The position numbers were made by a program, and so were the translations under genes. Of a stretch of DNA of 64,000 nt, positions 7,568 through 9,917 are shown piece after piece. The DNA is from an uncultured Verrucomicrobiae bacterium (lineage in GTDB: Bacteria > Chlamydiota > Chlamydiia > Chlamydiales > JAFEGQ01), in the NCBI GenBank assembly GCA_963739345.1, contig CAVUAA010000001.1, positions 1,180,714 to 1,244,713 of the forward strand, given 5' to 3'. The notes under the pieces were generated by a model. The model was not told the origin of the DNA. It was given only the letters and a program-made list of their open reading frames with translations, and made no database searches. How positions within the stretch are numbered: the stretch's first letter is position 1; each line of letters begins with the position of its first letter.

Positions 7568-8020
7568 CTACCCCTGAGGCCCCCCCCCATTCGTCTTGCG
7601 ACGGAAGAAGAGAGCGTCGAGGGAAATACGGCCGGCACCGGTGATCAGAAGACTGATCAACATCAGACCGTATAGAAGGGGAATGGCATACCCGTTCGCA
7701 CCTGGGTTGTATCCATTCGCCCAGTGAACAAGAGCGATCGCATTGATCAAGATGACAATTAACGGAATCGTGATGATGCGGGTCAAGAAACCAAGGACGA
7801 GGCAGATCACCCCAGCTCCTTCACAAATCATAGTGAGCCAAGCAAAAAATGTTGGCGCAGGAACCTGTAGACTCTGTAGAAATCCGGCAAATCCGTCGAT
7901 TCCACTCACCTTCATCATGAATGGCCCAAAAAACCCGTAAGCCAAGATCAAACGAAAAAATAGGGGTGGCAAATCTCTAAGTTGATTGAGCCCATCGGCT
8001 ATCTTATTCAGCAGTCGCAT
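7568..8020 (-). CDS. DoxX-family membrane protein, last gene of the MNIO RiPP operon
   Basis: 150 aa, 4 TM, DoxX-like (LILAYGFFGP...LTRIITIPLIVILINAIALVHW). The start overlaps the upstream stop by 13 nt. Confidence 0.75.
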   Translation of the reverse strand: MRLLNKIADGLNQLRDLPPLFFRLILAYGFFGPFMMKVSGIDGFAGFLQSLQVPAPTFFAWLTMICEGAGVICLVLGFLTRIITIPLIVILINAIALVHWANGYNPGANGYAIPLLYGLMLISLLITGAGRISLDALFFRRKTNGGGPQG

Positions 8021-8748
8021 CTCATTTTCTCCTTTGCGAAACCCAGGGCCCCACCCTGGGCGAACATGTTTTTAAAGAACTGAATCCCATTTTTACACAA
8101 TTGCTCATCAAATGAAAGCTTTAACTGCATACACGCCTGCTCGAGCGCTTCAAGAACCAACATTGACCGGTCAGCCAATAAGCTCACCGCCACTGCGAAC
8201 AGAGGCGACACCTCAACGAAATGGACAGTACAAATTTCCGGATGGCGAAAGGTGAATAGAAAATGGGAACCCGCCTCCAGGGCATCGGTTTTTTCTCTCC
8301 ACACTGGATAGGTAAAATGGTCAAGGCTATGTTCAGGGTTAATCACAACTGGATCAAACCTAATGTCCCCCTCAACCACCGACTCAGACGCAACGTCTGG
8401 TCCCATGTGCACCTCAATCTCCAGCCACTCGAAGCGGAGGAGGTCGAGCAGCCACGGAATCTCGGTGCCGCGCCCCTCGACATAGTCACAGAGTCCTTTG
8501 GGCATTTTCCACAGCTCCGGCGAGCCACACTCGTGATTGGAAAAAAACTCATTCACGAGCGGCTCCCACCCCTCGCCCAGCGCCTCCCGGGTCAGCGGAT
8601 ACGCTTTGTTGAGCACTCGCAAAATCCCACCGAAGATCGCCTTGCGATAGATCTCCAATCGACGCTTTTCTACATCTGCAACCGCTTCGAGCTCACCCGT
8701 CCGGCAACACCTTGCAAACTTTTCCTGCAGCTCAGCTAGCACAAGCAA
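8008..8748 (-). CDS. DUF2063-family RiPP maturation partner (BufC/HvfC-like)
   Basis: 246 aa. N-terminal pattern RLEIYRKAIFGGILRVLNKAYPLTREALGE...PWLLDLLRFEWLEIEV is typical of DUF2063. TTG (8748) or GTG (8742) start overlaps the DUF692 gene's stop. Confidence 0.7.
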   Translation of the reverse strand: MLVLAELQEKFARCCRTGELEAVADVEKRRLEIYRKAIFGGILRVLNKAYPLTREALGEGWEPLVNEFFSNHECGSPELWKMPKGLCDYVEGRGTEIPWLLDLLRFEWLEIEVHMGPDVASESVVEGDIRFDPVVINPEHSLDHFTYPVWREKTDALEAGSHFLFTFRHPEICTVHFVEVSPLFAVAVSLLADRSMLVLEALEQACMQLKLSFDEQLCKNGIQFFKNMFAQGGALGFAKEKMRCDC

Positions 8749-9544
8749 CCCAAGCCTTATCGCAGATATCCTGAAGTCTACTCATCTCCATCTGCATTTC
8801 GGTGTATTCAGGAACGGCGTGATCCCGCTCTAATAGGACCGGCACCGGATGAAGCCTCTTGGCAATCCACGCAAACAAATCGTAGACGTCTTCGCAGATC
8901 GGCTCCCCATGCGTGTCAATTTTGATATCATCAAAGCGGTCCTCATGCCCCGCCATATGAATGTAGACCACCTTCTCGAGCGGAAGGCTTTGGAGAAACT
9001 GGTGAGCATCGTATTTGTGATTATACGCATTGACGTAGACGTTGTTCACGTCGAGAAGGAGATCGCAATCGGCCTCCTCAAGCACACGACGGAGAAAGGT
9101 CGCCTCGTCCATCTCAGGAGCAACCGATGTGTAGTAGGAGACATTCTCAATCGCAATGCGACGGCCGAGAAAATCCTGCACCTGCCCAATCCGATTGGCC
9201 ACATGCACAACTGCTTCTTCTGTAAACGGCAACGGAAGGAGATCGTAGAGATGTGCATTACCGCACTTCGCATAGCTCAAGTGCTCGGAGAAAACCTCAG
9301 CTCCCACCTCATCGAGAAACTGCTTCAGCCTCCCAATGAACTCCCAATCGAGAGGTTCAGGACTCCCCAACGAGAGGGAGAGACCGTGACAGAGGACCGG
9401 ATACTTCTCAGCAGCCGCGCGTACTTGGCGACCCCAAAACCCTCCGACGCCCATCCAGTTCTCGGGGGCAAACTCAACAAAGTTGGGGATGAAGCCTGAA
9501 GGAGGTGTGAGGAGCTCCCGGCGCAATGCACGCCGGAAGCCCAT
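8732..9544 (-). CDS. DUF692 / MNIO (multinuclear non-heme iron oxidative) enzyme, MbnB/BufB/HvfB-like
   Basis: Motifs HGLSLSLGS, SEHLSY, IENVSYY, LLLDVNNVYVNAYNH, HMAGH, IDTHG, LLERD. The ORF-track start (9721) would overlap the precursor gene. ATG at 9544 lies 10 nt after the precursor stop. Confidence 0.85.
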   Translation of the reverse strand: MGFRRALRRELLTPPSGFIPNFVEFAPENWMGVGGFWGRQVRAAAEKYPVLCHGLSLSLGSPEPLDWEFIGRLKQFLDEVGAEVFSEHLSYAKCGNAHLYDLLPLPFTEEAVVHVANRIGQVQDFLGRRIAIENVSYYTSVAPEMDEATFLRRVLEEADCDLLLDVNNVYVNAYNHKYDAHQFLQSLPLEKVVYIHMAGHEDRFDDIKIDTHGEPICEDVYDLFAWIAKRLHPVPVLLERDHAVPEYTEMQMEMSRLQDICDKAWVACAS

Positions 9545-9554
9545 TCCTACACCG

Positions 9555-9917
9555 CTAGCCACAGGTTCCCTCACCGCAGCTTCCCTCGTCCGACTTGTCC
9601 TCTTCTTCTGGCTTAGGATCGCCGCCACAAGTTCCCTCACCGCAAGACCCTTCGTCAGTCTTTCCCTCTTCAGCGGCAGCAGTAACTGAGCGCCAGTTGT
9701 AGCGGCTCTGCTTCTTCCCATCCTCAGGACGCTTTGGTCGCGGACACTTTCCGTCTTGGCAGGCCGCCAGCGGCTCTTCGTTGTTCAGCAGCTTGCTTCG
9801 CACATTGCTCCCCGACCCCAGATCGCAATAGTCGGTCATGGCTTGTAAGCCCTGTGTGCTGAGCACACCGGCTACCAATGTTCCCGCCGCGAGGGCTATA
9901 ATCTTCGTCTTGTCCAT
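9555..9917 (-). CDS. Secreted Cys-rich RiPP precursor with tandem EGxCG repeats (HvfA/oxazolin-like)
   Basis: 120 aa. Signal peptide MDKTKIIALAAGTLVAGVLSTQGLQA, 7 Cys, C-terminal repeat DEGSCGEGTCG x2 (coded at 9624-9656 and 9558-9590). GGAGGAG Shine-Dalgarno lies upstream of the ATG. Confidence 0.7.
   Translation of the reverse strand: MDKTKIIALAAGTLVAGVLSTQGLQAMTDYCDLGSGSNVRSKLLNNEEPLAACQDGKCPRPKRPEDGKKQSRYNWRSVTAAAEEGKTDEGSCGEGTCGGDPKPEEEDKSDEGSCGEGTCG

Follow-up and report, generated by a model that had tools for sequence, protein, structure and literature searches.

The 64,000-nucleotide stretch analysed here (contig CAVUAA010000001.1 of assembly GCA_963739345.1; hereafter the window) comes from an uncultured chlamydia-like bacterium. 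[quoted passage not shown] An operon of this composition for a peptide synthesized ribosomally and modified post-translationally (RiPP) in a chlamydia-like genome had been proposed in a sequence-only reading of the same DNA. Curated models, a profile match to the structure 3DEE, synteny, and precursor anatomy bear this out, and on these grounds the operon is assigned to the HvfABC/oxazolin family. The genes and the hairpin that follows them are laid out as follows.

9555..9917, minus strand: hvfA-like precursor gene, 120 aa, with signal, leader, CxxxxC pair, and two EGxCGEGxCG core double motifs
8732..9562, minus strand: hvfB-like MNIO (DUF692) maturase, 276 aa from GTG 9562 or 270 aa from ATG 9544
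8008..8748, minus strand: hvfC-like partner, 246 aa, DUF2063 N-domain and NGO1945_C/RRE-type C-domain ("PME-type 1")
7568..8020, minus strand: hvfX-like DoxX-family integral membrane protein, 150 aa, PF07681 and NF050144
7458..7487, minus strand: terminator-like hairpin, 13 pairs and then a T-run, about 80 nt past the DoxX stop

All four same-strand frames lie at the coordinates first proposed for them, and the described overlaps of 17 nt (MNIO/DUF2063) and 13 nt (DUF2063/DoxX) were found again. The 10-nt gap that had been described as separating precursor and MNIO is probably an 8-nt overlap instead. The M-A-S-G-V-G stretch between GTG 9562 and ATG 9544 aligns with the conserved GVGxGFRR N terminus of five homologs, a GAGG lies about 6 nt upstream of the GTG, and the resulting 276 aa equal the length of the nearest homolog. 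The MNIO most likely starts at GTG 9562 rather than at ATG 9544, so that all four genes would overlap. A mechanically called 329-aa frame at 8732..9721 was discarded as an over-extension of the MNIO frame into the precursor gene.

The sequence-only reading had staked its assignment on significant hidden Markov model matches of the two central proteins to DUF692 and DUF2063, and both were obtained. The MNIO matches PF05114 (MbnB_TglH_ChrH) with E=4.9e-97 and 324.7 bits (cut-off 25) over profile positions 1-261 of 263, and its translation contains all of the motifs that had been listed for it (HGLSLSLGS, SEHLS, LLLDVNN, HMAGH, IDTHG, and LLERD). With 366.9 bits it passes the cut-off of 360 set for the NCBIfam HvfB equivalog NF003818, a model on which the MNIOs of chlamydial relatives score 369-398 bits, all of those tested passing. 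The score on the BufB model NF050167 is 273.4 bits against a cut-off of 310, and the sister equivalogs ApyH, ChrH, and MbnB give 74, 66, and 55 bits, respectively (cut-off for TIGR04159, 325), all below their cut-offs. By these scores, the enzyme belongs specifically to the HvfB/EGKCG-oxazolin branch and not to the DUF2282 or 6/12-Cys bufferin branches.

The earlier label of a "bufferin/oxazolin type" thus holds in its oxazolin half and not in its bufferin half. A bufferin operon with a BufA1 (DUF2282) or BufA2 (6/12-Cys) precursor would use the same four-gene vocabulary, and the score on the BufB model is sizeable. The BufA1/BufA2-BufB-BufC bufferins of Caulobacter vibrioides likewise combine a Sec-exported cysteine precursor with a closely related MNIO, a PME-type 1 partner, and often DoxX, and their thiooxazole chemistry and periplasmic copper buffering would be shared with the window by homology (PMC11626156). 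Their precursors, however, are folded DUF2282 or 6/12-Cys domains, whereas the window precursor has no DUF2282 or other Pfam match and carries EGxCG double repeats in place of a bufferin fold. The bufferin assignment was rejected on the model scores and is extremely improbable.

The nearest solved structure to the MNIO, by similarity of sequence only, is 3BWW from Histophilus somni (E=7.4e-64), an MNIO that is 72% identical to HvfB (bioRxiv 10.64898/2026.07.17.739211). All iron-ligand residues are kept (H53, H88, E133, D165, N168, H196/H200, D210, H212, and E239 in the numbering of the 270-aa form), and these positions are at least 97% conserved across 86 aligned sequences. N168, D210, and H212, equated by motif position and not by a direct alignment with HvfB, would correspond to N175, D242, and H244 of HvfB site 3, whose substitution abolishes activity (bioRxiv 10.64898/2026.07.17.739211).

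The partner protein matches PF09836 (DUF2063; E=5.3e-15, 55.9 bits, gathering score 27.2) and PF22106 (NGO1945_C; E=1.4e-07, 32.3 bits, gathering score 27). Built from 14 orthologous partners, a profile hits 3DEE, the structure of NGO1945, over positions 4-209 with E=2.6e-14. The profile was needed for this match, as a single-sequence phmmer search of the HvfC-like protein against the PDB returned none, and an AlphaFold2 model of it made without an alignment was unusable (pLDDT 35). NGO1945 from Neisseria gonorrhoeae is the archetype of the PME-type 1 partners (PMC12452194; PMC13097082). The fourth protein matches PF07681 (E=1.1e-14) and passes the HvfX family model NF050144 with 88.6 bits (cut-off 80); an exact-sequence look-up of the window DoxX returned no record. 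The role of DoxX/HvfX is not established in the literature (PMC11252979; PMC13097082).

The precursor is made up of the following elements.

9840..9917, minus strand: predicted Sec signal peptide, aa 1-26 MDKTKIIALAAGTLVAGVLSTQGLQA, likely cleavage after LQA
9789..9824, minus strand: leader motif DLGSGSNVRSKL, aa 32-43, of the form DLGSGxxVRxxL
9744..9761, minus strand: CQDGKC pair (C53, C58), a CxxxxC followed by PRPKRP
9624..9653, minus strand: core double motif 1, EGSCGEGTCG, aa 89-98, two Cys predicted to become 5-thiooxazoles
9558..9587, minus strand: core double motif 2, EGSCGEGTCG, aa 111-120 (the C terminus), two further Cys predicted to be modified

The signal region was judged by inspection and hydropathy only. 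It shows K3 and K5 in the n-region, a 14-residue hydrophobic core, and the LQA cleavage motif, and the 12-residue windows from aa 5 and aa 9 average 1.9 on the Kyte-Doolittle scale. LQA is conserved within the clade and in Rhabdochlamydiaceae precursors, and no lipobox is present in the precursor. For the leader, the frame upstream of the MNIO gene was taken from 85 related loci, which gave 79 usable precursors from Chlamydiota, Bacteroidota, Calditrichota, and Ignavibacteriota. All but two of these (77/79) show the pattern G[STNA][GA]xx[VLIF]R, and (E/A)GKCGEGKCG motifs occur in nearly all. The leader motif is a probable recognition element for the HvfB-HvfC complex.

The basic stretch PRPKRPEDGKKQSRYNWRS follows the CQDGKC pair, whose two cysteines, C53 and C58, do not vary among six clade members. 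The CxxGKCP of the window aligns with "CRNGKCG" of the precursor P0252 and with the first "ELKCGEGKCGE" of precursors from the Fibrobacteres-Chlorobi-Bacteroidetes group, and CQDGKC is probably a degenerate first core motif. The two cysteines more likely form a disulfide than become modified, because the characterized enzyme pair FonBC does not tolerate Pro after the Cys, disfavors Gln, and needs a small residue there (PMC13097082). In HvfA, the corresponding CxxxxC disulfide, C38/C43, aids recognition (PMC11252979).

In the first core double motif C92, G93, G95, C97, and G98 are invariant in a four-sequence alignment, and in the second C114, G115, G117, C119, and G120 are invariant in the clade alignment. 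The precursors P0241-P0244 and L002 share the layout of the window precursor; P0243 lacks the first core double motif. Ser or Thr stands where Lys usually precedes the target Cys. Across chlamydial and other loci labeled as belonging to the Planctomycetes-Verrucomicrobia-Chlamydiae (PVC) group, Ser, Thr, Gln, Asn, or His mostly takes this place. FonBC accepts Ala, Arg, or Thr at the position of this Lys and requires a double repeat (PMC13097082), and the window motifs agree with both demands. The basic N-terminal module that spans PRPKRP...RYNWR is strongly conserved and clade-specific: a precursor profile searched against 1.84 billion representative proteins gave only 42 matches at E<=0.001, and the module is found in only 4-5 of the clusters matched.

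The closest relatives of the MNIO are 84%, 71%, and 66% identical and lie on three related metagenome contigs with the same gene order, namely SIS_2, LpxK, precursor, MNIO, HvfC, DoxX, SDF transporter, and E2 acyltransferase. For all four cassette genes dN lies between 0.1 and 0.6 and dS is saturated (precursor against locus L001, dN=0.17 and dS about 2). The saturation makes most dN/dS ratios incomputable, and the purifying selection is stated only as a dN well below dS. The cassette with the 66% identical MNIO, locus L003, is found at 9681-11453 of JBFPED010000484.1 (GCA_041166445.1). F-box, Legionella_OMP, and IAT_beta genes lie near it.

With the gene identities and family, the ligand conservation, the precursor architecture, the purifying selection, and the conservation in relatives in hand, we consider it likely that the locus is a complete and functional HvfA-HvfB-HvfC-HvfX RiPP operon (Buf_EGKCG/oxazolin type, or "captophorin") of an environmental member of the Chlamydiota that makes a Cu(I)-binding 5-thiooxazole peptide. 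Both the chemistry and the binding of Cu(I) have experimental precedent (PMC11252979; PMC13097082; bioRxiv 10.64898/2026.06.05.730506). In HvfA, the six Cys of the motifs are oxidized by HvfB-HvfC, which gives a product that takes up multiple Cu(I) ions (PMC11252979). This product was first described as carrying oxazolone/thioamide groups, the chemistry also named in the earlier reading, and has since been reassigned to 5-thiooxazole (PMC13097082; bioRxiv 10.64898/2026.06.05.730506). HvfB works with a mixed-valent diiron cluster as its active cofactor, and this cluster assembles only when HvfC is present (bioRxiv 10.64898/2026.07.17.739211). Clusters that pair an MNIO with a PME1 protein have been named captophorins, and all characterized members install thiooxazoles and bind copper (PMC13097082).

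By homology with these systems, the chemistry, the export route, the copper binding, and the physiological role would be as follows. The HvfB-HvfC heterodimer would bind the 120-aa precursor in the cytoplasm, where the DUF2063/RRE partner probably engages the DLGSGxxVRxxL leader. The iron- and O2-dependent MNIO would then oxidize each of the four core Cys by four electrons, turning them into 5-thiooxazoles with a loss of 4 Da each. The modified peptide would be exported via Sec and cut after LQA26, and a C53-C58 disulfide would form as C38-C43 does in HvfA. In the periplasm or on the cell surface, the mature peptide of about 94 aa would use the N/S donors of its thiooxazoles to bind Cu(I) and would buffer copper met inside host vacuoles. 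With four heterocycles, it would be expected to take up a smaller number of Cu ions than the Haemophilus oxazolin with its six sites. DoxX/HvfX would have an accessory role.

Several observations weigh against this assignment. The partner protein matches the HvfC equivalog NF050145 with E=2.2e-32 but reaches only 112.8 bits, under the cut-off of 142; its chlamydial relatives score 127-144 bits, and by these values the window HvfC is a divergent member and not an equivalog at the NCBI threshold. The precursor passes NF050137 (KCGExKCG_twice) by less than 1 bit (20.4 bits, cut-off 19.5) and stays far below the cut-off of the HvfA equivalog NF050188 (22.1 bits, cut-off 95), and the closest sibling precursors are below the cut-off on both models. 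Lys precedes the target Cys in 88% of non-PVC motifs, against Ser/Thr in the window, and the tolerance of the window enzyme for Ser/Thr would have to be extrapolated from FonBC, a different enzyme. No copper-homeostasis gene adjoins the cassette in the window or in the Rhabdochlamydiaceae loci examined, and a regulator or promoter for the cassette was not identified. In L003, the precursor lacks the second EGxCG double motif and ends in ...DKKKPNPWGVS, and HvfC is called at 188 aa with the N-domain only. This suggests that the L003 cassette is partly decayed, so that the system would be dispensable in at least some lineages.

The same losses in L003, together with the missing first motif of P0243, would fit a cluster that was acquired horizontally and survives as a decaying remnant whose product is no longer made, all the more as obligate intracellular genomes tend to shed accessory genes. 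In the window, however, all four frames are intact and overlapping and all metal ligands are kept, dN is far under the saturated dS for every gene, and synteny is maintained at MNIO identities down to 66%. The GC content of the cassette (0.51-0.54) lies inside the range found elsewhere in the window, and the clustering of the chlamydial MNIOs (bootstrap 79) argues for long retention over recent transfer. Pseudogene or relic status was rejected on the intact frames, conserved ligands, and selection, and a remnant is very unlikely.

The tree behind this clustering is a neighbor-joining tree of 86 MNIOs, in which the chlamydial sequences form one clade that also takes in two contigs of uncertain label from metagenome-assembled genomes (MAGs). 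The loci in the tree had been chosen beforehand for their similarity to the query, and proteobacterial references are absent from it; with this sampling, the clade is weak evidence of a long residence in the phylum. Neither the GC content nor the clustering in this tree of pre-selected loci without proteobacterial references supports a recent horizontal transfer.

A survey for the same cassette, which the sequence-only reading had recommended, recovered it well beyond the three syntenic contigs. Complete cassettes are present in Candidatus Acheromyda pituitae, another Rhabdochlamydiaceae MAG, a Parachlamydiales MAG, a Simkania-labeled MAG, and the marine single-cell genome Chlamydiales SCGC AG-110-M15, whose precursor is of the classical multi-EGKCG kind. 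Two MAGs labeled as Verrucomicrobia bacterium (SZAS-8 and SZAS-9; loci L028 and L030) also carry complete cassettes. Their MNIOs group tightly with that of Acheromyda pituitae (bootstrap 98-100), and the precursor they encode hardly differs from that of Acheromyda, so that the Verrucomicrobia labels are probably wrong and the MAGs chlamydial.

Two of the Rhabdochlamydiaceae cassettes have an additional conserved frame of about 146 aa directly after doxX (L031, 8028-8468; L066, 7105-7542). The two frames share 37% identity (E=2e-27) and a signal-peptide-like N terminus, and they end in ...GGC or ...SGC; neither Pfam nor NCBIfam gave a match. They may represent a fifth cassette gene. The same two cassettes adjoin a protein with a UVR motif and another with an ATP:guanido phosphotransferase domain, which together resemble McsA/McsB.

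Beyond the phylum, more than 8,000 proteins of the MNIO family were retrieved, with close relatives in Calditrichota, Bacteroidota, Ignavibacteriota, and Chlorobiota. The presence of such an operon in chlamydiae had been called unexpected, which overstates the case. The PVC group is already among the MNIO-bearing taxa (PMC11626156), DUF692 proteins of Chlamydiales SCGC AG-110-M15 and of the Simkania-labeled MAG are already on record at NCBI, the cassette recurs in Rhabdochlamydiaceae and Parachlamydiales, and the intracellular Legionella pneumophila subsp. fraseri has seven MNIO genes (PMC12452194). A literature search for MNIOs together with Chlamydiota found no linking paper in the library covered.

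Compared with the HvfA-HvfB-HvfC-HvfX system of nontypeable Haemophilus influenzae, the window has the same four families, an MNIO and a DoxX protein that pass the HvfB and HvfX models, and conserved iron ligands that include the positions equated with the essential site-3 residues. HvfA has a 24-aa signal peptide, the C38/C43 disulfide, and three AEGKCGEGKCG motifs (PMC11252979), and the window precursor resembles it in its Sec signal, N-terminal CxxxxC, and C-terminal xEGxCGEGxCG double motifs. It differs in having two double motifs with four target Cys instead of three with six, Ser/Thr instead of Lys before each target Cys, about 60 aa instead of about 20 aa between signal and core, the clade-specific basic PRPKRP...RYNWR module, and an extra cysteine, C31. 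The gene order is A-B-C-X in the window, whereas doxX lies upstream in H. influenzae. Unlike the H. influenzae proteins, the window precursor and HvfC fall under the equivalog cut-offs, and the host is an obligate intracellular chlamydia instead of a gammaproteobacterium.

Fontiphorin (FonABC, Fontimonas thermophila) and gonophorin (NgoABC, N. gonorrhoeae, with the partner NGO1945/3DEE) share with the window the pairing of an MNIO with a DUF2063/RRE partner and EGKCG-type repeats, and their products are 5-thiooxazoles that bind Cu (PMC13097082). The double repeat that FonBC requires is present in the window, and FonBC accepts Thr at position 3. These clusters were surveyed in Pseudomonadota; the repeats of the chlamydial precursor are fewer, and its leader differs. 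The wider Buf_EGKCG/oxazolin family also consists of signal-peptide EGKCG precursors encoded with an MNIO, DUF2063 (PME-type 1), and DoxX in varying orders (PMC12452194). Its members are mostly from Pseudomonadota and have 17-residue repeats forming a β-helix, or EF-hand fusions (PMC12452194), in contrast to the two isolated non-Lys double motifs, 12 residues apart, of the window peptide. The latter would probably place among the roughly 4,000 MNIOs without a recognized precursor in PMC12452194. Methanobactin (MbnA-MbnB-MbnC) resembles the window in the four-electron Cys oxidation by an MNIO that yields a copper-binding peptide. The window enzyme, however, is distant from MbnB, its partner is a DUF2063 protein rather than MbnC, and only methanobactin has an oxazolone/thioamide product, a leader peptide without a Sec signal, and dedicated export and uptake genes.

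Around the cassette, the lpxK neighbor named in the sequence-only reading is present on the strand of the precursor gene, 49 nt upstream of it (PF02606, E=7.8e-78). No promoter-like site was found between the two genes in a promoter scan whose counts were no higher than in shuffled controls, so that co-transcription with the SIS_2-lpxK genes is possible. At the other end, the hairpin 3′ of doxX is the probable, though only suggestive, 3′ end of the transcription unit; terminator-like sites are no more numerous in the region than shuffling leads one to expect. Within 7446-7487 (minus strand), the hairpin overlaps the GTG start (7482) of the mechanically called SDF-transporter frame, whose true start is probably an internal Met about 12 codons downstream (MKLWLK...). 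Neither a second precursor nor a second MNIO was found in a search of the 64-kb window. The long frames at 8849-9499, 8263-8739, and 12090-12878 (all plus strand), one of them a 262-aa Pro/Ser/Thr-rich frame, are antisense or out of frame to the MNIO gene, hvfC, and glpD, arise from a GC content of roughly 55%, and were rejected as genes.

The chlamydia-like origin of the window is supported by an NTT-type ATP/ADP (TLC) transporter at 31440-32834 on the minus strand (PF03219, E=6e-73), as had been read from the sequence, and by its MnmG. NTT transporters are a hallmark of energy-parasitic intracellular bacteria. The MnmG is closest to those of Parachlamydiales/Parachlamydiaceae MAGs (67-70% identity) and of the contig carrying the L003 cassette (73%). 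A 420-aa Fic/DOC-domain protein at 19747-21009 (minus strand; PF02661, E=6.7e-21) is a possible AMPylating effector or toxin, and a Fic protein is also encoded near the L001 cassette. A full-length DsbD-type thiol:disulfide interchange protein (58328-60424, minus strand; DsbD_N, DsbD_TM, and thioredoxin-like domains) may be relevant to the periplasmic handling of cysteines and disulfides in the exported peptide. The frames at 13806-14618 (plus strand, 270 aa) and 16262-17032 (minus strand, 256 aa) have no Pfam match at E<=1e-4 and are candidate lineage-specific proteins, possibly those that had been called Inc-like or effector-like.

The genes next to the cassette are lpxK, a gmhA-like SIS_2 gene, an AhpC/TSA-type gene, and glpD, which are lipopolysaccharide (LPS)-core and redox genes and not copper genes. 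This setting would suit the same 5-thiooxazole peptide in a role other than detoxification, such as copper acquisition in the manner of a chalkophore, binding of another thiophilic metal, protection from oxidative or sulfur stress via DoxX, or host entry or interaction as for NTHI1441 of Haemophilus. The function and metal specificity of EGKCG peptides are still called open (PMC13097082), a DoxX homolog has been linked to oxidative and sulfur stress (PMC12452194; PMC11252979), and the passage of PMC11252979 that cites Ahearn et al. gives a 76% drop in epithelial invasion for an HvfA knockout. The strong conservation of the clade-specific PRPKRP...RYNWR module also speaks for such a role. On the other hand, every characterized MNIO-PME1 product binds copper, bufferins give periplasmic protection from copper stress (PMC11626156; PMC13097082), and no importer such as a TonB-dependent MbnT-like receptor adjoins the cassette. 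A role of this kind is possible but on the whole unlikely.

In kind, the system is already known, and the locus reveals no mechanism and no type of system that would be new. Its novelty is modest and consists of a chlamydial sub-lineage that is conserved and syntenic and has a minimal Lys-free precursor with a clade-specific N-terminal module. The locus extends a well-described class, whose published surveys were centered on Pseudomonadota, into the obligate intracellular Chlamydiota. As a natural variant, the precursor carries EG[S/T]CG in place of EGKCG, has no more than two double motifs, and includes the conserved module CxxGKCPRPKRP...RYNWR. As the HvfA models barely detect or miss the EG[S/T]CG variant, such peptides are probably under-counted.

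For the biology of the chlamydiae, the locus offers a candidate periplasmic copper-handling peptide that is conserved in several families and encoded beside LPS-core genes. A further-reaching idea, which we hold to be doubtful, is that the HvfABCX cassette is an old, vertically retained trait of environmental Chlamydiota whose Lys-free thiooxazole peptide serves the intracellular cycle, either by protection from copper in copper-loaded vacuoles of protist or animal hosts or by NTHI1441-like host entry. If this were true, the peptide would be the first RiPP shown to be relevant to chlamydial infection biology.

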